DNA of 64,000 nucleotides, from assembly GCA_044892505.1 (NCBI GenBank), contig CM097883.1, positions 198,958,001-199,022,000 on the forward strand. Direction: 5' to 3'. This stretch comes from Schmidtea nova. Its lineage: Eukaryota. The stretch's first letter is position 1; every line of letters starts with the position of its first letter. The notes under the pieces are model-generated. The model ran no database searches and was not told where the DNA came from. It saw nothing but the letters and a program-made list of their open reading frames with translations. Below, piece by piece: positions 16,101 to 43,695 of the stretch. The position numbers and the translations under genes were made by a program.

Positions 16101-16409
16101 CAACAAATCAACTTTATAGTCATTACTATTGCAATCCATTGTAAATAAATTTATGTAATTAAAAAAAACTTTGAATGAAATATTCTCGAATTAGCCCTGC
16201 GGAGCTCGTGGTATATCTAACGGATACATGTTATCTAATTTCAAAATTATTTTTTTTGTAACACCACACATAATGTGGCAACCCTTAGTAGCTATGTCTT
16301 AATGATTCATAAGCGATAACCAGTATTTGATGCGTCATAAATTTTTCTTGTTTTAGTGTGAAAATTTATTTTGTGCACGTTCGACATTCACTATATCACT
16401 CGAAAGTTA

Positions 16410-17906
16410 TAGGGTTTTCCGACCTATTTAGACACTTTAACGATCAAATTAGACATTTCAAAAAAGTAAAATATATTTCACAATCAATTTAGACAATTTT
16501 TCAATCAATTTAGACAATAAAGTTAAGAATAAGTTTAGCAAATCCACAATGATTTATTCATATATCAATTCCATATTTCTACTTCTTTCGATATAAGTCA
16601 ACATTCTCCTGAAATACCCTCCACAATCTTCGCTTGTTACGATGTTAAATCCCGCCATAATCAAATCATTCAATTCATTTTCGTTGTTTGCATTACCTCT
16701 GAGCACGTGATTCTTCCATTTACTGAAACAATTCTCAATAATGTTAAGAAATGGGGAGTAAGGGGGTAGGTATACAACTTTGATGTTTTCAGCTTCACAC
16801 ATGGAAATAAAACGAGTACAATGATGTATACGGGCGTTGTCGATGATGAAAATTGGATCGGTAATTCCTTGGTTTATGGCTAAATTTTTTAACTCCACCA
16901 TGTAACACAAAAATTTCTCGCCGTTTATAGGACCTGGATTTATTTCATAATTTAGAGTTCCATACTTTGATACTTCTGCAATAACGGAAATATTACGAAA
17001 TCTTGTCGCCGGAGTATTTACAATGACACTTGTACCAACTAAACTTCTTCCCCGTTTGACCCTTGTGCAAACCTGGAACCCAACTTCGTCCACAAATAAA
17101 AATGATTTATCATCATTATTTAAAAGCATACTTACAAATCTCTCCGCGTAGATACGTCTCTTCTCCAATGTCGTGGGATCGTTTCTCTTAACTGGTGAAA
17201 GTGTTACGCATTTCAAAGTATAATGAAAATTGCGTAAACACCGATCAATGGTGGGGATGGATACTTTTTTCCCAATTTGGTTTAACGTCATCTCTACCAA
17301 GTTTTTTAGTGTCATAATTGGGTTTTCATCAACCCATTCTTTAATAGTTTGCTTTTCACTCGGCGTCAATTTCGATCTTTTATCGCCGCCTTTTTTCAGC
17401 GGTGTTATTCTTCCTTCAGATTCCCACCTTTTGACGATGTTATATACACTTGTTCTTTTAATCGCGACCATTTCAGATATGCTGGAAATTGTAATGTTCT
17501 GAGAATAAAGCGAAATCACACGCTCTCTTGCATGCTGGTCAATTGTATCATACTTTTTTACATGCGAATCTACATTAACAGTCGCTTCCAATTCAACAGA
17601 GTCAGTATTTGATTCGTCTCTCATAACATTCGCCATCGGAGATGATGGCTCGTTTGTGTCAATAACGTTATTGATTATGTTCCGGTCATTCGCGTCATTT
17701 ACCGTTGTTTCGTCGTTGTTATGCATGGGTATCAAATACAGAGGAAATGTAGACATATTTAAAATTGATTATATATTATATAAGTATTCTTAACTTTACT
17801 GTCTAAATTGATTGAAAAATTGTCTAAATTGATTGTGAAATATATTTTACTTTTTTGAAATGTCTAATTTGATCGTTAAAGTGTCTAAATAGGTCGGAAA
17901 ACCCTA
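16410..17906 (-). mobile_element. Intact Tc1/IS630-superfamily DNA transposon (DD34E) with long TIRs and TA TSD
   Basis: Near-perfect TIRs of about 120 bp starting TAGGGTTTTCCGACCTATTTAGACAC (one mismatch seen). TA is duplicated at 16408-16409 and 17907-17908. Confidence 0.95.
16554..17756 (-). CDS. Tc1/IS630-like DD34E transposase, 400 aa, uninterrupted
   Basis: Two HTH regions, then FLFVDEVGF (D1), IFIIDNARIH (D2) and PPYSPFLNIIE (E), with 34 residues between D2 and E. Confidence 0.95.
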   Translation of the reverse strand: MSTFPLYLIPMHNNDETTVNDANDRNIINNVIDTNEPSSPMANVMRDESNTDSVELEATVNVDSHVKKYDTIDQHARERVISLYSQNITISSISEMVAIKRTSVYNIVKRWESEGRITPLKKGGDKRSKLTPSEKQTIKEWVDENPIMTLKNLVEMTLNQIGKKVSIPTIDRCLRNFHYTLKCVTLSPVKRNDPTTLEKRRIYAERFVSMLLNNDDKSFLFVDEVGFQVCTRVKRGRSLVGTSVIVNTPATRFRNISVIAEVSKYGTLNYEINPGPINGEKFLCYMVELKNLAINQGITDPIFIIDNARIHHCTRFISMCEAENIKVVYLPPYSPFLNIIENCFSKWKNHVLRGNANNENELNDLIMAGFNIVTSEDCGGYFRRMLTYIERSRNMELIYE

Positions 17907-18579
17907 TATTTGAAGGGTGAGTATGATCGTCATACCTTCGAAGGTCTATGGTGGTTACTACTACAAAGAGTTCAAAACCTTCAAAATTTTTAAACCTTAC
18001 AATTTATATATCATTCGGAAGGTAATTGAGAGGTAGGTATGATGGTCATACCCTCGAAGGTTTATGGTCGGTCAAGAACCTTCAAGGGGTGTCCAAACTT
18101 AAAAGTTTTTCATACCTTACAAGTTATATCATCAAAAGGACTTTTGATGGTGAGTTCAAAAGTCATATCCTCGAAGGGTCCAAAGTTCAAAAATTTTAAA
18201 ACCTCATAATATACATATCATTCGAATGGTATTTGAGATGTAAGTATGATGGTCAAACTTTCGAAAGTTAATGGTGGGTGCTGAACCTTCAAACCTTTAA
18301 AACTTTAAGGGGTCTAAAATCTTTAAAATTATTTAGTATATATATATATATCAAACAAAAGGTAATTGACAGATGAGTATGATGTTATTTTGAAGTTTTC
18401 TAATGTTTCTTGTATTTTATTTGCGCTTGAACAGTTTCTTATGTCTGTTTTTCTTTCTCCTATTAGTAATGCGATTTTGCGTTGAAGTGGAACGTGGCTT
18501 TTCCATGTAGAATATTGTTGGGTTATTAGTGTGAAGTCGGTAGTTTCTGACTCCGGTGTTCTCTTTCAATTACAAAATA

Positions 18580-19400: not shown

Positions 19401-20361
19401 ACAATATGATCACTATGTAAACTTTTAGAATTAGCTCGGTGTTTGCAATTAGTGTATCTGGGTCTTTTGTGTAACTTACCATTGTATCTAAAATGGTATT
19501 TTAACTTCTGCGTTCGGTGTTTCATAAGTGAATTGTATATTGGTGTTAATAAAATTTGCACGTGATAGGATTTGATTGACAGGGATTGTGGAGATTGAAG
19601 ATGTCGTCAATGTATCGTTTCCAGAAAAGTATTTTGTCTCCAAAAAAAGATCTTATCTTAGATTCTATAAAGTTCATGTAGAAGAAGGCTAAGATGGGAA
19701 AAAGGTTATATTACCCATGGCTAATCCATAAATTTGTTTGAATGGTTTTTCTTTAATTGTGACAATATTTGAATTTATTGCTAATTTTAGAAGTTCTATA
19801 AAGTCTTGTTTAGTTATGTCAGCGAGGTCAGTGTTGGATTTTTGAGTTTCAAAGAAAGAAGCTGTGATGTCGAAAGTGTTATTCATCGTAAAGAGGAATA
19901 GATCCGTAGAGATTGGATACATCATGAGATCCCCAGAATTACTGTTGTCCTGCGTTTAATAGAAGAGACGTGTTTGTAATTTCAGGGATGAGTTCAGTTG
20001 TGTTTTTAAGATGACAAGAAAACAATAGCAAAAGTGTTTTTAAGGTTTTCTGAAAGTGTTGTGGAAGGAGTGTCTACTGCGGATACAAGAGGTCTGCCTT
20101 TTAAAGGACTTTTGTGGTCTTTAGGTAACATAGTCATATTACTAGGCAAGGGCTCACTACAGTTGCATTTTAAGAGTAAATCTTTGATTTAAAGGATGAT
20201 TTATTTATTTGCAAGTGTTGACAGTTTTTTATTGTATAAAATCTGAGTCGATGCAGGTAAGATTATTTTGTTTATCGGTTCATAGTTCGAGAGATGTTCT
20301 TCAAATAGTGTTGTATTGTTCTGTGTCAAGTGCAATTAGTCGATTGATTTTATCAAATGGA

Positions 20362-20873
20362 AGAATTGTGAAGTAATTGGAATTCTTTATTTTCTTTATG
20401 TTTAAGTAAAAGTTTTTGTGTTTAAAAATGTTTTTCAAGCGTGATAGTTTGTTCTTTGATTAAACGTTTGATTTTAGTTTCTAAAAAGCTGATTTTTCTT
20501 CAAGTTCAGTCGAAAAGACAGACATATTTGGATATGTTCAACGATTTGGATCAAGAAAATGATTGTACTTTTCAGCTAAACTTGAAGATTTGGTGGATGA
20601 ATTTGGTTTTAGATGGTAGAATTGTGAAGTAATTGGAATTCTTTATTTTCTTTATGTTTAAGTAAAAGTTTTTGTGTTTAAAAATGTTTTTCAAGCGTGA
20701 TAGTTTGTTCTTTGATTAAACGTTTGATTTTAGTTTCTAAAAAGCTGATTTTTCTTCAAGTTCAGTCGAAAAGACAGACATATTTGGATATGTTCAACGA
20801 TTTGGATCAAGAAAATGATTGTACTTTTCAGCTAAACTTGAAGATTTGGTGGATGAATTTGGTTTTAGATGGT
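20362..20873. repeat. 256-bp tandem duplication within the Penelope-like element
   Basis: 20362-20617 repeats at 20618-20873; the identical ORFs 20441 and 20697 are offset by 256. Confidence 0.95.
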
Positions 20874-21284
20874 AACATATTTGTCCTCTTAGGTTTATAA
20901 GAGAGGCGTTAGTGATGACTTCAGCTTTTTCTAAATCTTTCATGTTAGACGGAGGCACAAATGATGGTCCTAGAGCGAGGATATTTACTTGTGTTTTGGA
21001 AGAAATGTGATTAGATTTGTTTGAAAATGGAATAATTGAATTTGAGTGTGAGTATGAGTCATTAGTGTTGTTTGAATTTATTGAAAGTAGCATTTCTTAT
21101 GCTTGCGAATATCAAGATTTTTTGAGAAATTTGGCAATATAATTCTTATTAAACCTATTTCATTTAATTAAAATAAACAATCTTATTTAAAAATTATTTA
21201 AAACTTATTAATAAAATAAGACTGAAATACGAATGAAATAATACATTTATTAAAATCATACAATGACAATACATAAAAATGAAA

Positions 21285-21930
21285 CTACATGAAATGAAAA
21301 TACATAAAATGATAACACCTAATATAAAACATATTTATATAATCAATCAATACTATCGAGATATCACAATTTTTGAATTGAGTGTGTTCGGAATCAGGAA
21401 CATCATCTATCTTGCGATGGCAATTATCGCAATCGGGAGATTCTGATGACTGATCGCATTGAGGCGATTGATCGCATTGAGGCGATTGATCGCATTGAGG
21501 CGATTGATCGCATTGAAGCGGATATGGCCCATCGAGAGTTGGAACCGGACTCATTGCAATCTTTCGATTGTTCACATTCTGAAACTTCATTTGGTTCTGG
21601 TGTGGAATTTAGCCATTCTTCTTTTTTATGTTCATCTTTTCTTTATCGTTTTCTTCATCTTCTTGTATGGTTTCCATTAATTCTCTTTCGAATGTTTGTA
21701 ATGCTTTCCGCAATACCCAAACATGAAATTTCTCGATTTGGTCCTGACATATAATGTGTTCGGCCATATGTGGTAGCTCCATATAGATGTTTGCCATATG
21801 ATCTAGCAGGATTTGGTTGATGTCTATTCCCGTAATACGCTGGATCTTGTACGGGAATAGTTCAGGTACCGTGTAGATTAATTTTGAACATCAAGTTTGT
21901 CGATCAGTATGGCCATAAGTTTCTCTAGAA
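21285..21930 (-). pseudogene. Disrupted orphan ORF with (PQCDQS)n repeat and CxxC motif
   Basis: LIYTVPELFPYKIQ...MANIYMELPHM...acidic/basic tract...PQCDQS repeats...CDNCHRK. An 18-bp repeat TGATCGCATTGAGGCGAT spans 21451-21520. One frameshift and one stop. Confidence 0.4.

Positions 21931-22029: not shown

Positions 22030-22033
<4 letters not shown>

Positions 22034-22078
<45 letters not shown>
22034..22078. repeat. (TA)n microsatellite
   Basis: Pure AT dinucleotide run, followed by two CCAATCAG motifs. Confidence 0.9.
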
Positions 22079-22079
<1 letters not shown>

Positions 22080-22271
22080 CCAATCAGATTCGAGTATGCA
22101 GAATATGTCTTTATTAGGAAATACATATTGAACCAATCAGAATCGTGCATTAATATAGCTGGTTTATTGCAATCATGAGTCACATGTTAATATGAAATCG
22201 ACAAAGTCTTTATCTTCAATAATTGATTTTATATCGTTAATAATATTATCAACTATATTTAAATAGTCCCT

Positions 22272-22640
22272 AGTCTTTAAACCTAATATAACCTATTACT
22301 TGCAAATATATTAACACACATGGGGTTATATTTTATTTATCTCAAAACTGAAAATATTTCTGGTTCGTAAACTCATTCTATTAAGTTAGCCAAATTATTT
22401 AAATTATAACTAAATCCCAAGTCTGCCGTTACAGTAATTGACTGGATTGTTAAATCAAAAAACTTTACTTTTTCATCGCTAATAAATTCCTTGCATCCCA
22501 TAATTCTAAATCTCCTCGTCTTAAAATATATTATCGGATAATTACCACTTCTATCAATAATTTGCTGTGGTTTCTCCGTTGGAAATTTCATGTGAGATAC
22601 ATCAGTCTTACCCTTATAATTTATGTTTCTAATTATTAAT
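22272..22640 (-). pseudogene. Divergent TATA-binding-protein-like pseudogene
   Basis: Reading through stops: IIRNINYKGKTDVSHMKF...PIIYFKTRRFRIMGCK...TIQSITVTADLGFSYNLNNLA...*VYEPEIFSVLR*IKYNPMCVNIFAS/VILGLK. This matches both TBP repeats (canonical IQNIVGSCD...YEPELFPGLIYR...LIFVSGKVVLTGAK). Confidence 0.75.
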
Positions 22641-23689
22641 GAACATTTTTTTTAAATATGACAAATAACAACTATTATTTAAAACAAATATAAACAATAT
22701 TAAGAAATTAAGAAAATTAAGAAATGACGCAGTGTTCCGAATTGTTGGCCCGAGTGGGAGTTGAAAAACTTTATTTGTTTGTTAATTATTACAATCAAAA
22801 TTATTCAAATTAAAGTTTAATAAAATTTATTGACATAAGTCAATTTTGTAAAATAAAAATGACTATTATTGTGTTATTTAATGGTTTATTGAGAACGTGT
22901 GGTATTTGTCTGATATTTTTAGAAAATTATTATTGGTTATATATGTGACGAGAACTGTAGAGCCCAACAGAGTATCCTTTAAGAATTACTGTGTAGGGAC
23001 AGTTGAGGTGTATGTTATATAGATGACTGTATATGTGCGTGCGTATGTGAACAAACTAACAAAAGATTATTATCAACAAAAACAACTTTTAAAAATTACA
23101 ATTTTTATTTAACTAAATTTAATAATAAATAACTAGTACTCACGTTGAATAAATGGTGATAAACAGTTCGTCTTATTTTCAATTCGATTTTCTTTCGAAA
23201 TTTTCTTTTTTCTTGTTCGTTTAATTTTTTGTTAATCTCCAATTAAAATCCTAGTTTTCTTTTGAATTTGAAAACAAAGAAACCCGGAAAAACAAATAAA
23301 ATCGGAAAATCGAAGGAACCAGTTTCAAAAACCAGTAATGCACCAACTAAAAAATTACTTATTGATAATATTCCAAAGAGCAATCGTATTCAAAATACTA
23401 TTAAATCAAATCCAAAACCAATACATCATCGTAGTTTCCCATTTTCCAATGCATTACTTAAAGGCTGACTATTTTCAGAAATTTCGTTTAAAATCAATAA
23501 ATAACCGGCTTGAGCTATTAAATTTTTAGGAATTCCAGGTATGTCTTGGAATTCTGCCTTATTAACTTTAGAATCTTCAATTAAGCTCCTCACCGTTATG
23601 GAGACGTATAACTTTTTGAGACGGTATCCGTGGCGGATTAACCTTTGTAAATAAACATTATGTAAAAACAGGTCCGGATATCGCATTGC

Positions 23690-25010
23690 TTTACATATAC
23701 ATCAATAATTTATATGGTTGGGCTTTAAGTCAACCTTTGCCATGTAGTAACTTTGAATGGCCACTTATTAAACAATATAATTGTTGAGTGCACAACAAAG
23801 AAGTGGATTTAGAAATACTGACTTATTGAGAATCTCTGAACCATCGACAAAAAGGATCTGATTTTCAAATTTAAGAACTTTTGGAGTTCTGCTGTGAAAA
23901 AGGACATCTCACACCTTCTCGGGTTTTAGGAACCTTTGCCCAATATTAATCTCTTCACTGACAGTCAACATTGGACACAAATTGGTCATCACAGCAGATC
24001 CGCGTGGCAATTGTTCAAACAGTTCAGTCTGTTCAAATATACTTTCCTTGTCTGACACTTCACAAAGCTTCTTGATTCTGTCAATACACATTTCACATCG
24101 TCCAATCCCATCCGGCAACAGCTTCAGTTCAGTATTAGATGTGTTGAGCCACAAGAGGAACTACGTTCTTCATTACAGACTTCTGCAACTATTTATTAAA
24201 TTAGGTGTAAAATTAGCACATGTCCATCGTGCAATTAAATTTACACAAAATAAAATATTCCAAAATTATATAAACACAAATACGGCGTTACGAGCAGCGT
24301 CAACAAATAAATTAGATAAAAACTTTTATAAATTACTCAACAACAGTCTTTACAGCAAGACTGTTGAAAATTTTAAAAAAACGTATAAATTTATGTTTGT
24401 GCGATTTCGCACAAAAAACTATTAACATATGCTTCGAAACCAACGTTTCGTAAAACCACTAAAATCGACAAAAACATAATTTCTGTTTTTTTAGGAAGGA
24501 ATCAGTGTGTTTGAATTGATCTAGTTACATAGGTCAAACTGTACTAGATTTATACAAACTTCGAATGCACCAGCTGCAGTATGAAGAGTTGCAAAAATAC
24601 CGTGAAGACTTCAACTGCGAAATTAACATCGTTGCTGGTGACACTGATTTCTTCTTTTTGGAAATCAAAAATCTTTCAATTGATGTTCTTTTACTGGCCA
24701 TGATTAGAGACAATATTCTTGATACCTCCAATTATGACCCAAATAATCTTTATACAGTAGGAACCTTGATTCTATCATTGGCAAGTTCAAAGACGAGAAT
24801 AAGGGATTATTGTATAAAGAGTGGGTGTTCCCATGACCTAAGTGTTATTGTTTAATGGGTGACGAGGCGAGTATGAAGGGATTATCATGAAAGTACTGGA
24901 CTAACACATCAGTCGTATCTGGATTGCTATTTAAATAACAAAATATACACAATCCCACAGTTTAGGATAACATCGAAAAATCATCAGCTTTTTGCGAAAA
25001 AGAAAATCAA
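23690..25010 (+). mobile_element. Polinton/Maverick-type protein-primed DNA polymerase B remnant
   Basis: INNLYGWALSQPLP (motif A), NYVLHYRLLQLFIKLG, FYKLLNNSLYSKTVEN (motif B), IVAGDTDFFF (motif C), ILDTSNYDP and RITSKNHQL. Frameshifts and stops; no TIRs, integrase or capsid genes seen. Confidence 0.88.
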
Positions 25011-26040: not shown

Positions 26041-26349
26041 ATCCTAAGTATATACTAGTCCAACAGTCTTTTTATGTAAGGTTATGGGTGAAGGATCCGT
26101 AGTACACATAATTAAAGTTTCGAAACCCACCCATCATTTGTTGAGTCATAGATGACTCATATGTCTTTGTTCCCGTATCCACACTTCTACCTACTATCTA
26201 CAATCTATCAAAATGAATTGCTACTTAAACATTACTCCAACATTCTTTGAAGAAAACTTTCCCTCGCAATTTCAAAAAATCATACACCACAAAACACTCA
26301 GAAAGAAACCAAGCATGTTATTGTAACAATCACGTATACCCAAATAAGA

Positions 26350-27060
26350 AATCGCCACAGGGAATTACTATAGACCCGTAGGTTTAGGGAAGAAAAATAA
26401 TTTCTTCAATTAGAAAAACAAGGCTTTGTACGACTTTTGTATTCTCCATGGACAGCATCTTTTCAGATTGCCACAAAAAAAGATTTTAACTAATACTATG
26501 TTGCGAATACATGGGCGTAAATAAAGTAACAGTGTCCAATTCTTATCCCATGCCCCTCATTTATGATATACTACAAAGATTCTAAAGCTGCACTATTTTT
26601 CTCATCATTTGATTTGATCAAAGCTTATCATCAGATTCCGATTGATAAAGAACTTAAAACAGCGGTCACTTCACCATTTTGACTTTTTGAATATATTTGT
26701 ATGTTTTATTACGTCACATTGAAACAATCTTAAAATATATTGAACCTTCTGTGACATGTTGAAGACATTATCACTGCTTCCCCAAACATTAATATACATA
26801 AAAAGGATCTATATGAAACTATCACGACTAAAAAATAAAAACCCTCAGCTAAAACCACACAGCATTTTCTGGACATATTTTTTTCAAGTGACATTAAACC
26901 CTCTATGTGTGTAGACTATAAAAACTTTCCCAAACTCGAAATAATTACTGCTTTACGCAGTTTTCTTTGAACTGTCAATCTTTCGTTTGTGATTGCTCCA
27001 TTAACATAAATTTCCGCTAATTCTATACAGGTCACCGTGTTACAATACGAGTATTGTTAA
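26350..27060 (+). pseudogene. Gypsy LTR-retrotransposon reverse transcriptase relic
   Basis: SPWTAS...KKD, SYPMPLIYDILQ, IFSSFDLIKAYHQIPI, KTAVTSPF*LFEY; heavily degraded. Confidence 0.85.
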
Positions 27061-27356
27061 AAACAATATTCAACCTGAACTTAAGTAAAAATATTTTATT
27101 CTGATCTAATTCTTGCTTTAGTTATTTCGCTTCAAATCTATTTTTGCTTTTTTTAACCAAGTAACGTTACTCTAGGCAAATAAAAATGATTTGCCTTCAT
27201 TTGTGCAAAAATGAAATCACTACAAATGTTGTCAAAATAGTAACACTGAATTGGAATTTCCCCATATTTAGCAAATTATAAATTGTCCGATAAAGAGCTT
27301 TTAAAGCGGCGTCAAGACTTATAAAAGTTTATTTTTATTGACCTAATGCTTATTAG

Positions 27357-30300
27357 ATCACATGGCTTCTGCAAGCTGTTAGTGTCTGCGATATGACAAC
27401 ATTAATGGGCGATGACAGCATAAGCAATGTCAGACGGTTGTGTCATAAATCTCTTAAGCCTCTCTCTTCGAAAACTCGATCAATGTTAAAAGAAAAGTTT
27501 GATATTGATGCTACAAATTTAAGTAGGAAAACTAAAAATTGACTTTATAAATTAGTATTTTTTTACAGATTCAGCGGCTGTTTGTATTTATCCATCGCAA
27601 GTTTCTGAGGTGAAATCGCAACTTAAAATATCAAACATTAATATTGCCTCTGGTTAGTTATAAATCAATCTTGAAATTTAAAATATGATTATGTTGTAAT
27701 AAATGTACTTTAATATTTATATTACAATTGTCGTTATTAATCTAGTCAAATATCGTATATTTACTATGAACCAAGATCAAACTCTATTTAATATATAAAC
27801 AGGTTGTTAATTGGGAACATATCAAATGACTATTATGAAGCATGAATTGATTTTATATTTTGCTTTTGTAACAAATGTTCAACTGTTCTCGATATTTATT
27901 TTAGATGCACGAGTTATTTCTTTCAGCGTAGTTTCAGGAATTTAACAAACCGCGGTAATCAACAACAAATAATCTTGAAATCTTTTTTTAATTTATAATT
28001 TATTAAAAAGTTAATAATTTAATTAATTATATTCTACAATATTTATTGGTGAATTTTTTTCAAATTGTGCCTGAAGCCAATGGATGGAAATGATAAACGA
28101 AAATCAATGGAATTGTTTTTTAAAGATCCATCGTACATCTTTTCTATTCACCTAACTATGTTTTTTTATGTTCAATTGAAATTGCCAAACATGTTTAGTT
28201 CATTTAATAAAAACTATGATGACGCTTAAAAAGTAGTTTATAAATATACTATGCAAAATCATTTTAATTGAACTCGCTAAAAATAATATTAACCCGCCGT
28301 TGGTCGCGCAAGTATCGCTTACGCAGTTGGTCGCGCCGGAGCGAATAGCCGTATCGCAGTTCTTTACGCTTTTAAGTTGAAATATTTAATATTTATTTGC
28401 TTTTTTTATTTCTGGCATATAACCCCCCCTAGAAAAAAATTTTTGAAGTGACCTGGGGAGCCACTATGTTTTTGGGTCGATCTTTTGTATAGGAAAATTT
28501 TTGTCGGTTTTTTGTACAGGTGGCCTGGAAAGCCACTATGTTTTTGGGTCGATCTTTTGTATAGGAAATTTTTGTCGATCTTTTGAATAGGATTTTCTAT
28601 TCCGAGATTTTTCTCGGGCAAAAAGGGACACTGGATTTTTGTCGGTCTTTTGTACAGGTGAGTTGGAAAGCCACTATGTTTTTTCGTCGATCTTTTGTAT
28701 AGGGAAATTTTTGTCGGTATTTTGTACAGGTTAGTTAAAAAGCCACTGTTTTTTGGTCAATCTTTTGTATAGGAAAATTTTTGTCGGTCTTTTGAATAGG
28801 ATTTTCTACTCCGAGATTTTTTCTCGGGCAAAAAGGGACTCTGGAATTTTGTACAGGGATTTTTGGTCTGGTATTTTTGAATAGAATTTTTAGTCTGGTT
28901 ATTTTGAACAGGGGTTTTCTATTCCGAGATTTTTCTCGGGCAAAAAGGGACACTGGATTTTTGTACAGGTGAGTTAGAAAGCCACTTTATTTACATAAAG
29001 AAAGAAGAAAAATAAAATTAAAAATATTTCAAAAGCTAAATATAATTTTTTTACACATAAGATTAAAACTTTAAAAATAACATAAAGCATATATATTATT
29101 CTTGATCTTGATCACTTGAACATTTTTTTGCAATCTGGACATGATACCGACAATGTTTTTTGCATATTGGGTTATAGCACATGTGGTATCTGATGATAGT
29201 TTTGTGATTTTTTTCTTTGGCAGAAATCGCATTTTGGTTGATTTGATCCACTTGGTTCTGGGTTCTGAATTATTACAGTGTCAAGTTTCTCTCCTAAATA
29301 CTCCTGTATTTTTATTCGCATTATTTGCGATAAATTTGGCACGGTCAATTTATTTTTCAAATAAGGACTTAAGAGACTAGATGATAAATTTTTTAAATAT
29401 TTTCTACGAGTAATTATTTCATTTGTATTTATTTTATATATTATCTGGCTATTGATTCCTGCAACATTCAACAAACTGTAAAATATAGTATAGCGGCCAT
29501 CGAAAACTAACTCGTAATACCGAATATTCTGCTTTTAGTCTATCTACCATTTTATGGCTATGGAGGATGTTATAGTGTATATTATTTATGTAGAGTGTTT
29601 ATGTGTGTATTGTTTGCGAGTATCTTAGAAGTATTTGTAGAGCCCAAGAGAGTCTTCCAATAAAAAAAGGTCGTGTGGAGACACTCGGGGTGATTGCTGT
29701 GGTGCGCGAATTTACAATAAAATAAAATAAAGATTTGAAACAAAAAAAAACAACTTTCAACAATCAACTCTATATTTTTAAACAACCAGTTACTCACGTA
29801 TCCTGAGTAAATTGCCTGAGATAACAATAATTGATAGGGACAAGGTGAATTGATGTGTGACTGATTCTGTTATTGGGATTGATAAGATGAATTGTTATTC
29901 GGACCAAGTACGGTTCGAATATTGACTGAAATGTTGTATGGAGAATTCTGTTATTAAGATTGATAATATGAATTGTTTTTCGGACCAAGTACGGTTCGAA
30001 AATTGACTGGAATGTTGTATTTGGTCGATTCGATCCACTTGGTTCTGGGTTCTGAATTATTACAGTGTCAAGTTTCTCTCCTAAATACTCCTGTATTTTT
30101 ATTCGCATTATTTGCGATAAATTTGGCACGGTCAATTTATTTTTCAAATAAGGACTTAAGAGACTAGATGATAAATTTTTTAAATATTTTCTACGAGTAA
30201 TTATTTCATTTGTATTTATTTTATATATTATCTGGCTATTGATTCCTGCAACATTCAACAAACTGTAAAATATAGTATAGCGGCCATCGAAAACTAACTC

Positions 30301-33300
30301 GTAATACCGAATATTCTGCTTTTAGTCTATCTACCATTTTATGGCTATGGAGGATGTTATAGTGTATATTATTTATGTAGAGTGTTTATGTGTGTATTGT
30401 TTGCGAGTATCTTAGAAGTATTTGTAGAGCCCAAGAGAGTCTTCCAATAAAAAAAGGTCGTGTGGAGACACTCGGGGTGATTGCTATGTGGTGCGCGAAT
30501 TTACAATAAAATAAAATAAAGATTTGAAACAAAAAAAAACAACTTTCAACAATCAACTCTATATTTTTAAACAACCAGTTACTCACGTATCCTGAGTAAA
30601 TTGCCTGAGATAACAATAATTGATAGGGACAAGGTGAATTGATGTGTGACTGATTCTGTTATTGGGATTGATAAGATGAATTGTTATTCGGACCAAGTAC
30701 GGTTCGAATATTGACTGAAATGTTGTATGGAGAATTCTGTTATTAAGATTGATAATATGAATTGTTTTTCGGACCAAGTACGGTTCGAAAATTGACTGGA
30801 ATGTTGTATTTGGTCGATTCGATCCACTTGGTTCTGGGTTCTGAATTATTACAGTGTCAAGTTTCTCTCCTAAATACTCCTGTATTTTTATTCGCATTAT
30901 TTGCGATAAATTTGGCACGGTCAATTTATTTTTCAAATAAGGACTTAAGAGACTAGATGATAAATTTTTTAAATATTTTCTACGAGTAATTATTTCATTT
31001 GTATTTATTTTATATATTATCTGGCTATTGATTCCTGCAACATTCAACAAACTGTAAAATATAGTATAGCGGCCATCGAAAACTAACTCGTAATACCGAA
31101 TATTCTGCTTTTAGTCTATCTACCATTTTATGGCTATGGAGGATGTTATAGTGTATATTATTTATGTAGAGTGTTTATGTGTGTATTGTTTGCGAGTATC
31201 TTAGAAGTATTTGTAGAGCCCAAGAGAGTCTTCCAATAAAAAAAGGTCGTGTGGAGACACTCGGGGTGATTGCTATGTGGTGCGCGAATTTACAATAAAA
31301 TAAAATAAAGATTTGAAACAAAAAAAAACAACTTTCAACAATCAACTCTATATTTTTAAACAACCAGTTACTCACGTATCCTGAGTAAATTGCCTGAGAT
31401 AACAATAATTGATAGGGACAAGGTGAATTGATGTGTGACTGATTCTGTTATTGGGATTGATAAGATGAATTGTTATTCGGACCAAGTACGGTTCGAAAAT
31501 TGACTGAAATGTTGTATGGAGAATTCTGTTATTGGGATTGATAATATGAATTGTTTTTCGTACCAAGTACGGTTCGAAAATTGACTGAAATGTTGTATGG
31601 AGGATTCTGTTATTGGGATTGATAATATGAATTGTTTTTCGGACCAAGTACGGTTCGAAAATTGACTGGAATGTTGTATGGAGGATTCTGTTTTAAATTT
31701 TCCAACTCATGCGCGAGTAGATAAATATGAATATGAAACTACTATTCTAAAATCGATTTTATTAATTTGTCAGCTTACTATAGTTTCTTACTATAGTAAG
31801 CTTTATTTTTAAATTTTAAAAATTTAAAATATAATTTTTTAATTAAAATAATCATAATAATAAAAATGATGTTGTCCTCAACACGCAGGGATGGGGGGAA
31901 ATCCAAACTATACATTTTCAATACTAACCATAAAAACACTAAATATAAAAAACAAATTATCATACCTAGCTGTTGGGTTCACCACATACCACATCTACCC
32001 AAATAACGTTCTCTCTCGATCGTTGATATAACACAACTAATACGCAAAACCAAATGTATATAAAATTAGCAAAACATGTTTGAGTCTGTAATATTGAATA
32101 AAACATCATTCTGGAAAGTAGAGGGATCCGCAACTTAATATGTTTCATACAAAAAAACGATAGGGTGAGCACTGTGCCGCCGCGCGACCAACAGCGGGTT
32201 AATATACATTGGGTGACTTGAGTTGACAAACGTGTCCAAAGAGTTAATCAAAATAAAGTAACATGTATTAATTTGATAGAATGTCAAAATATTTGGTAAA
32301 TTTTGAAAATATAGCCAATCTTTGTCTATATTCCTTTTTTGCTCAAGCGTCAATAATGGAAATTTCAACAGATTATAAATGCGATGTTATGTTGAAAGGC
32401 GTATGGTTGAAACCGCAAAGAAAGTTTATGATTATTTATGCAAAGTGTGGTAAGATGTGGTGAGGTACAAAGTATATTGTAAAGATACATGTCGAAAATG
32501 AGTGGATGAAGACAATCAGATTTTGATGAAATGTGCGACTTTAGTAGAATATTAGAATCATTGTCAACATTGATGCAATACGCAGGTTTATTGGAGGTGA
32601 TAGGAGTTTAACAATGTTATGAATTTCAGAAGAAACTAGAATAAGTTGAGGATGTGTTTATAAAGTTATCACAGATAATTTACAGTTTCATTCTTTTAGT
32701 GCAAAATGAATATAAGCCTTTATATACTAAAAGATAATCACAATATAACTGTATTTTGATAGCTCCGTATTTTACAAAAAAATATTCTAATTCACTTTCA
32801 AAAGCAAATATCTAAACAAGAAAACAAAAAGTAGATATTTAAACAACCAAAATTATTTATAAAAAATTGAATTACCAATCAAAATAACATCTTTTTTTCA
32901 TAATACCTCTATATATATCACAATATTATTCACAAACCTTATGGTAAAAAATAGGGGATGCTGTGTATCTGTGTCCTTAGAATACAGAAACAAAAGTCCA
33001 CCAGTAGTCTACTTGTGCTCAATAACTTTGAACCTAAAATAGGAATAATGACGCCACCGACGCAGAAGTTCGAATAAAATGTTTGATCAGATAAAGATAG
33101 TACCAAATTAATAATTTTTTTTAAAATTGTTGAGGATACCTAAAATACAAAATAATATAAAAATAATAAAATTACCTGGGGGAAAACAGTCATGACGAAG
33201 GAGATGGTCAATGAGAACACAGAAAAGAAAACGGAAATAGAAATGAATGAGAAATGAGAAAGAAGAATCAAACAAAAGAAATTAAACAGAAAATCAAAAC

Positions 33301-43580: not shown

Positions 43581-43584
43581 AACT

Positions 43585-43695
43585 TTACTTGTTCATCACT
43601 AATAAATTCCATGCATCCCATTATTCTATATCTGCCTGTCTTAAAGTATATTATTGGATACTTTCCCCTTCTATCTACAATGTTTTGTGGAATTT
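43585..43695 (-). pseudogene. Second, partial copy of the TBP-like sequence
   Basis: IPQNIVDRRGKYPIIYFKTGRYRIMGCMEFISDEQVK versus KPQQIIDRSGNYPIIYFKTRRFRIMGCKEFISDEKVK in the first copy. Confidence 0.75.

Follow-up and report, generated by a model that had tools for sequence, protein, structure and literature searches.

Schmidtea nova harbours a high-copy Polinton/Maverick family, 15–16 kb in length, whose intact copies encode a 155-residue protein with a predicted TBP saddle fold (hereafter mini-TBP) and carry a recurrent promoter box, YATAAACR, before the ATPase, integrase and capsid genes. Mini-TBP probably binds this box and recruits host TFIIB and Pol II as a late-gene switch. One internally deleted, dead copy of the element, without special value in itself, lies in the 64,000-nt stretch of DNA analysed here (the window, to which unprefixed positions refer). 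A preliminary description of the window had proposed an endogenous Polinton-like lineage carrying its own TATA-binding factor. Three tests that might have overturned this proposal, concerning fold, linkage to PolB and phylogeny, left the endogenous lineage with its own TBP-fold factor standing; the term TATA-binding needs revision, as the fold is accompanied by an altered DNA face and the candidate site is YATAAACR instead of a strict TATA.

The mini-TBP pseudogene occupies 22176..22636 on the minus strand, a span of 155 codons in intact copies. Both motifs quoted in the preliminary description (IQSITVTADLG and YEPEIF..VILGLK) are present on that strand, although neither represents the N-terminal half: both belong to the C-terminal repeat, the only part matched by Pfam (aa 62–127). 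The second half-repeat that had been claimed does exist (aa 1–57), but it is trimmed and was recognised by profile and structure only. The gene was rightly called intronless, since intact copies have a 155-aa frame from ATG to stop; its size of about 120 aa and its limit at 22272 were underestimates, as it reaches 22176. The relic lacks a start codon at the aligned start, contains in-frame stops at about 22373–22375 and 22337–22339, and is frameshifted near 22290. Its amino acid identity to an intact copy is 82% over residues 1–116 and 85% over residues 117–155, and its nucleotide identity to the closest copy among those retrieved is 89.6%. With the stops read as X, it scores against Pfam TBP at E 9e-5 and 22.7 bits, slightly below the cut-off of 22.9. 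A separate 110-bp mini-TBP scrap from another copy lies at 43581..43690 (minus strand).

Other parts of the element flank the pseudogene. On the minus strand, the main exon of an acidic, Cys-containing gene follows TBP as a relic (21402..21881); in intact copies this gene apparently has a short first exon with a GT-AG intron. Its promoter region (22033..22137, minus strand) contains two ATTGG boxes (inverted CCAAT), as seen by comparison with L032, L034, L042 and L190. A (TA)n microsatellite at 22033–22078 occupies the position of a short TATATATA in other copies and represents an expansion of that site. On the plus strand, a TATAAACA box (22689..22696) is kept before the 5′ stub of the packaging ATPase gene (22714..22869), which stands head-to-head with TBP. 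A fragment of a basic, Lys-rich gene (23271..23463; 85–89% nucleotide identity to L044, L046 and L040) ends at the junction of a deletion of ~9.1 kb that runs to mid-PolB; most of the ATPase gene is also deleted. The broken C-terminal half of a protein-primed PolB follows (23464..24996, plus strand; PF03175 E 5e-6), with a ~315-bp unrelated repeat inside it at about 23824–24137, and the right terminus of the element, a TIR end, lies at 26152..26195 (plus strand; 89% over 45–46 nt to the termini of L041 and L042). A PolB relic about 1 kb from TBP had thus been correctly noted, at 0.8 kb and on the plus strand, but this spacing is not native. In intact copies, the equivalent PolB segment lies ~10 kb from TBP, with the ATPase, integrase, capsid and protease genes between them; the short distance in the window is due to the ~9-kb deletion. 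Because the TBP side resembles one subfamily (85–90%) and the PolB side a second one (86%), whose TBP region is only 71% alike, the window copy may be a recombinant or a member of an unsampled subfamily.

Within the same genome, a search for mini-TBP returned 15,368 first-look candidates, a figure that is not a copy number; all 150 of those scored matched, and most of them contain an open frame of 170 aa. With MCP as query there were 15,499 candidates, and a distant MCP returned the same element family. For fourteen copies anchored on TBP, 10 kb of flanking sequence was added on either side. All fourteen have the ATPase adjoining TBP, an integrase and a minor-capsid candidate, thirteen have an MCP, and ten have an in-sense PolB within 10 kb, one of them a fragment. 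From the best matches to the window PolB (40 scored), ten copies were likewise extended, and eight carry TBP ~10 kb upstream; the remaining two are a truncated copy and an inverted duplication. TIRs of 0.68–1.07 kb were found in 8/8 pairs, and 6/7 copies examined have a length of 15.1–16.2 kb together with a 6-bp TSD. The suspected association with PolB is therefore borne out in other copies, where the two genes are joined within TIR-bounded elements.

The genes are arranged in two divergent groups. One strand carries an SSB-like gene (orf145), the acidic gene and TBP, and the opposite strand carries the ATPase, the basic gene, orf77, the integrase, the minor-capsid candidate, orf130, MCP, the protease, orf165 and PolB. 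In intact copies, PolB is of the protein-primed type (PF03175 E 7e-18), with no Pfam match to an OTU domain in the first 400 aa of its large exon, and the packaging ATPase matches Pox_A32 (E 4e-6). The integrase, which is deleted from the window copy, combines rve (E 2e-8) with a chromo domain, and the protease is an adenovirus-type cysteine protease (Peptidase_C5 E 2e-5). For MCP, a profile found no match among PDB sequences; its structure model (pLDDT 74.9) is a double jelly roll that Foldseek aligned with the PBCV-1 capsid (E 2e-14) and the mavirus MCP (E 3e-12). The minor-capsid candidate is a 340-aa ORF without a Pfam match, labelled by its position between integrase and MCP only. PolB, rve integrase, packaging ATPase, adenain protease, double-jelly-roll capsid and TIRs are shared with adintoviruses and Polintons as covered in the text of Starrett et al. 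(2021; PMC8502044; preprint 10.1101/697771).

Short first exons with GT-AG introns were found in the protease, acidic and PolB genes (L153:340–600, L032:220–495 and L153:1262–1700, respectively); the protease intron falls after the ATG plus two bases and is common to L057 and L064. The ESM Atlas neighbours of orf145 (L152:3609–4049) are viral hypothetical proteins, together with ORFs of yeast linear plasmids and poxvirus I3, which makes up 12% of one cluster. Judging by these neighbours, orf145 is likely an ssDNA-binding protein, a lead with a low recognition score. Subfamilies (L031–L050, L142–L161) diverge far more in PolB (about 48% amino acid identity, L033 vs L037) and minor capsid (52–60%) than in the ATPase (about 95%), which suggests an exchange of modules between them.

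Intact mini-TBP copies match Pfam TBP at E 1e-12 to 6e-18, and hhalign supported the fold at 99.6%. A structure model of one intact copy, built from 96 aligned relatives, reached a pLDDT of 96.4 and a pTM of 0.85. It matched known TBPs in Foldseek (E 2e-9) and could be superposed on the archaeal TBP of M. jannaschii (2z8u) over both repeats (VIA Z 12.4, rmsd 2.2 Å, 135 residues), which agrees with the fold originally proposed. The modelled saddle is reduced and has no extra domains. In its N-lobe, H1 is absent, with no helix between strands 2–10 and 25–28, and H2 has six residues (54–59). Median spans are likewise shorter than in 32 canonical TBPs, namely 38 vs 48 residues from N69 to F116 and 23 vs 35 residues between the repeats.

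Residues were mapped by hhalign onto the yeast TBP positions in Table 1 of PMC12529657 and were counted over the 96 relatives. Kept positions are N69, F116, F190, P191, F207, V213 and the YEPE stirrup, in which the acidic TFIIB contacts are retained in sequence (E91 in 91 and E93 in 94 relatives). Other positions show nearly fixed changes, i.e., V71>N (92), F99>P (94), A101>Q (77), V122>R (95), T124>M (96), N159>S (93), V161>T (82) and L205>N (96). In mini-TBP numbering, the nearly fixed residues of the DNA face are N4 (91), N6 (92), P23 (94), F38 (95), R44 (95), M46 (96), S66 (93), F95 (96), N109 (96) and F111 (96). Three of the four intercalating Phe residues are kept, and the F99 position is Pro in 94/96, so that the DNA bend may differ. 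Of the central Asn pair, N69 is kept in 91/96, and the N159 position is Ser in 93/96. Mini-TBP has N, Q, R, S, T and N at six sites where TBP carries a hydrophobic residue or Asn, giving a polar face. Because these DNA-face substitutions are fixed, DNA binding appears to be retained with a new specificity. Intact copies are under purifying selection: over 27 distinct uninterrupted copies (NG86, broken copies excluded), dN/dS was 0.38 at dS<0.1 and 0.16–0.25 at dS>0.1, beside 0.05–0.16 for the ATPase. Compared with cellular TBP (PF00352; 2z8u, yeast 1ytb and human 1cdw), mini-TBP shares the two-repeat saddle in the model, the equivalents of F116, F190, F207, P191 and N69, and the stirrup. It differs in being encoded by a mobile element, in its 155-aa size, missing H1, short H2 and shorter spans, and in F99>P, N159>S, V71>N, V122>R, T124>M and L205>N.

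Relatives of mini-TBP are widespread. A protein database search yielded 73 proteins, 65 of which ranked above the first canonical TBPs and which are mostly 145–175 aa long; among 50% representatives there were 105 matches at E<=1e-10, the majority belonging to the short type. A relative is encoded by 174 metagenomic stretches. Of 80 such stretches kept, 57 carry at least one other element gene and the other 23 are contigs of at most 4.4 kb. The co-occurring genes are ATPase (27), orf145 (20), integrase (18), minor capsid (14), MCP (12) and PolB (8), and the position of mini-TBP varies, lying after orf165 in L074, L082 and L090. A search of viral contigs yielded one TBP (L131), of the canonical two-repeat type and outside the mini-TBP clade, and no relatives of the ATPase or MCP; a phage collection yielded none. 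Polinton contigs were also seen inside GTDB bacterial MAGs (L182–L186), one of which (L183) has a mini-TBP; they are likely mis-binned eukaryotic or viral DNA. Another related Polinton contig (L064:225–719) has at its left end an ORF that by eye resembles a ubiquitin-conjugating enzyme.

The host genome encodes a TBP of its own, with introns, as well as paralogues. In an unrooted tree of 63 rows, a 100/100 branch splits 30 mini-TBPs from 33 cellular-type TBPs, four of them from the host, which sets mini-TBP apart from the TBP of the host and from its paralogues; the host TBP is represented by one exon, the cellular rows are mostly unnamed, and long-branch effects are possible. Among the divergent host paralogues (L163–L166), L165 and L166 form long branches and have no introns in the core region. 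Nucleocytoviricota also have TBP-like proteins with a viral TBP fold in BFVD (best E 8e-8, Heterosigma akashiwo virus 01), which unlike mini-TBP are mostly 190–500 aa long and are 13–22% identical to it.

The second component of the system is the box. Among 148 distinct regions upstream of the ATPase, basic, integrase, minor-capsid, orf130, MCP and orf165 genes, 135 contain ATAAACR, and the base before it is C or T in 76/80. Within 120 nt of the ATG, it was found for the ATPase in 12/12 own and 25/25 metagenomic regions, for MCP in 12/12 and 7/7, for the minor capsid in 9/10 and 7/9, for orf165 in 8/8 and 8/11, and for the integrase in 7/7 and 9/16, where shuffling predicts 0.1–1.7 each; the metagenomic contigs are partly redundant and were chosen for the presence of TBP. 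The box persists even in elements whose ATPases are ~37% identical. For the five genes that begin directly behind it, the box lies 31–49 nt before the ATG in 86/95 cases and at least 31 nt before it in 94/95. From this clustering, we infer a TATA-position element with a short leader.

The box is also strongly oriented. Across 13 TBP-bearing contigs of at least 5 kb, YATAAACR occurs 108 times in sense and 6 times in antisense, and in one 10-kb own locus there are 12 sites vs 4.0 expected, a number reached in none of 200 shuffles. Canonical TATAAAA and TATAAAT number 24 and 30 on the sense strand vs 51 and 48 expected. Four partial loci without TBP in the part covered gave two sense and two antisense sites, a weak control in that three of the four come from one GC-rich clade (GC 0.51–0.56); a fifth locus recovered in that scan carries TBP as well as the box. 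Upstream of MCP, the box falls within coding sequence and is read there as Ile-Asn on ATA-AAC, even though ATA makes up 26–39% and AAC 15–55% of those codons.

Several genes depart from this pattern. ATAAACR precedes TBP itself in 0/12 own and 2/65 metagenomic regions (expected 0.6 and 2.8), and no promoter box was found for this gene. Own copies carry TATAAATR before the protease, where some relatives have ATAAACR; the acidic gene of one subfamily is preceded by TATAAACA and a CCAAT box, and the SSB-like gene has TATAAATA, one base off the box. ATTGG together with TATA-like sites precedes orf145 and the acidic gene, and also PolB in the single copy read for that gene. One YATAAACR site occurs in the long stretch upstream of PolB in 3/4 copies, with two sites in one. 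For orf77, one box lies 7 nt before the ATG and another at about −98; the former was assigned to the integrase behind orf77. The TIRs of the one copy scanned contain no YATAAACR.

These observations allow a mechanism to be proposed. Host machinery would transcribe the replication genes and mini-TBP first, the replication genes presumably having host-type CCAAT+TATA promoters that would be early in timing. Mini-TBP would then bind YATAAACR, and its kept YEPE stirrup would presumably recruit host TFIIB and Pol II, switching on the virion, packaging and integrase genes. The convex-face helices of TBP are targets of TAF/TFIIA/Mot1-type control, and their loss may allow an escape from it. The TBP N-lobe reads the 3′ half of the TATA box. 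In mini-TBP it is this lobe that has been rewired (V71>N, F99>P, A101>Q, V122>R, T124>M), and it is in its 3′ part that the box differs from TATAWAW, which makes a changed specificity plausible. More tentatively, a widespread Polinton clade could possess a minimal two-part late-transcription system, in which the smallest two-lobed TBP, without host regulatory surfaces and re-tuned to YATAAACR, reprograms host TFIIB and Pol II to the capsid genes without any other viral transcription factor; this wider claim is slightly less likely than not. If it is true, the result is an orthogonal TBP–promoter pair, convergent with but far simpler than the six-protein complex of herpesviruses, and evidence for an autonomous viral gene cascade in these "transposons."

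A precedent for a viral TBP with its own late box is provided by the vTBPs of beta- and gammaherpesviruses (KSHV ORF24, EBV BcRF1, HCMV UL87), which have a polar saddle. Like mini-TBP, they are TBP folds encoded by a virus, their DNA face is polar, and a TATA-like box of non-canonical sequence stands before the structural genes (PMC12529657). ORF24 has 752 aa and a Pol II-binding N-domain, keeps all four Phe residues, lacks the acidic TFIIB residues, requires five partner proteins and reads TATTWAA (PMC12529657). Mini-TBP, on the other hand, is a saddle of 155 aa and nothing more; it retains the stirrup for TFIIB and has YATAAACR as its candidate box. It would work like ORF24 in function only and is not a family member. 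The element described here has no RNA polymerase. In this it is unlike Nucleocytoviricota, which mostly bring their own.

An alternative is that host TBP reads the box and that mini-TBP is a decoy or repressor, which occupies TATA-like sites or sequesters TFIIB and so times viral genes or damps host transcription. Only one or two bases separate YATAAACR from canonical TATA, and an AdMLP TATA box with the C(−25) change presumably reads TATAAAC. Host TBP may read the box, since cellular TBP has been crystallised on that C(−25) variant (title of 1qn3). A decoy would also fit a protein that keeps its TFIIB stirrup while other partner surfaces are trimmed, in a host that has a TBP and paralogues of its own. 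This reading is nevertheless unlikely: with host TBP as reader, it is hard to explain why canonical TATAAAW falls below expectation while the C-variant is strongly enriched across elements with ~37% identical ATPases, and the box is missing from the four TBP-less loci (a weak argument). Mini-TBP might instead bend DNA for a non-transcriptional purpose, such as a replication origin in the TIR, condensation or packaging, with something else reading the box. Its location by the ATPase in many elements and by the SSB-like gene in 20/81 related loci would suit such a role, as would the reduced N-lobe surfaces. We consider it improbable, given that >90/96 relatives retain the acidic stirrup, which is known for contacting TFIIB, that the position of the gene is variable (after orf165 in L074, L082 and L090), and that YATAAACR is absent from the TIRs of the scanned copy.

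The forkhead consensus is RYAAAYA, and ATAAACA fits it, so the box could in principle be a host forkhead site unrelated to mini-TBP. There is very little room for this explanation: the preferred GTAAACA is not enriched (13 sense and 12 antisense sites vs 14.7 expected) and replaces the box in 0/13 upstream regions without one, ATAAACG, which does not fit the consensus, has a 24:1 strand bias, and the orientation and minimum distance of the box are fixed. That the window gene is intronless and broken could also point to a decayed host TBP/TRF retrocopy beside Polinton scrap by chance. This idea is refuted by the 150/150 scored genome matches, most with long open frames, the ATPase adjoining the gene in 14/14 extended copies, the purifying selection and the 100/100 branch separating 30 mini-TBPs from 33 cellular-type TBPs (four from the host), and its probability is close to nil. 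Mini-TBP as a late-gene switch acting on YATAAACR remains the preferred reading.

The proposed switch addresses the timing of capsid genes in Polintons and the self-sufficiency of animal Polintons as viruses. With a dedicated TBP and a fixed promoter box, these questions can be tested using a single small protein and a site of 8 bp. Mini-TBP is also a natural experiment that shows what the saddle can lose and which substitutions on its DNA face may alter specificity, and it could serve as a compact orthogonal core-promoter tool. Because the genome holds very many intact copies, any expression of mini-TBP could affect host transcription; the one sequencing run with reads over the host TBP gene showed them unspliced and therefore represents DNA. 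In the literature searched, the only link between TBP and such an element is a "TBP" label in the legend to Fig. 5 of Starrett et al. (2021; PMC8502044), whose text, in the sections compared here, gives no description of the gene, its structure, range or promoter. Nothing in the open-access text that was searched describes the clade, its trimmed fold or the box. Two TATA mentions proved not to be prior reports: PMC10675990 concerns other elements without PolB or capsid, and in PMC12220804 the match is an author name.

The window contains further repeats around the Polinton relic. An apparently intact Tc1/mariner-type element lies at 16408–17908, with 124-nt TIRs (99%) and a 404-aa frame containing HTH and DDE_3. 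A different repeat (19404–21137), by eye presumably Penelope-like, abuts the left side of the relic and includes a 256-nt tandem duplication at 20357–20868. Directly after the right terminus of the element, a decayed Gypsy-like reverse transcriptase was recognised by eye (26170–27100). Finally, three to four near-identical 789-nt tandem units at 29233–31575 contain a coding fragment that we take to be piggyBac-like.
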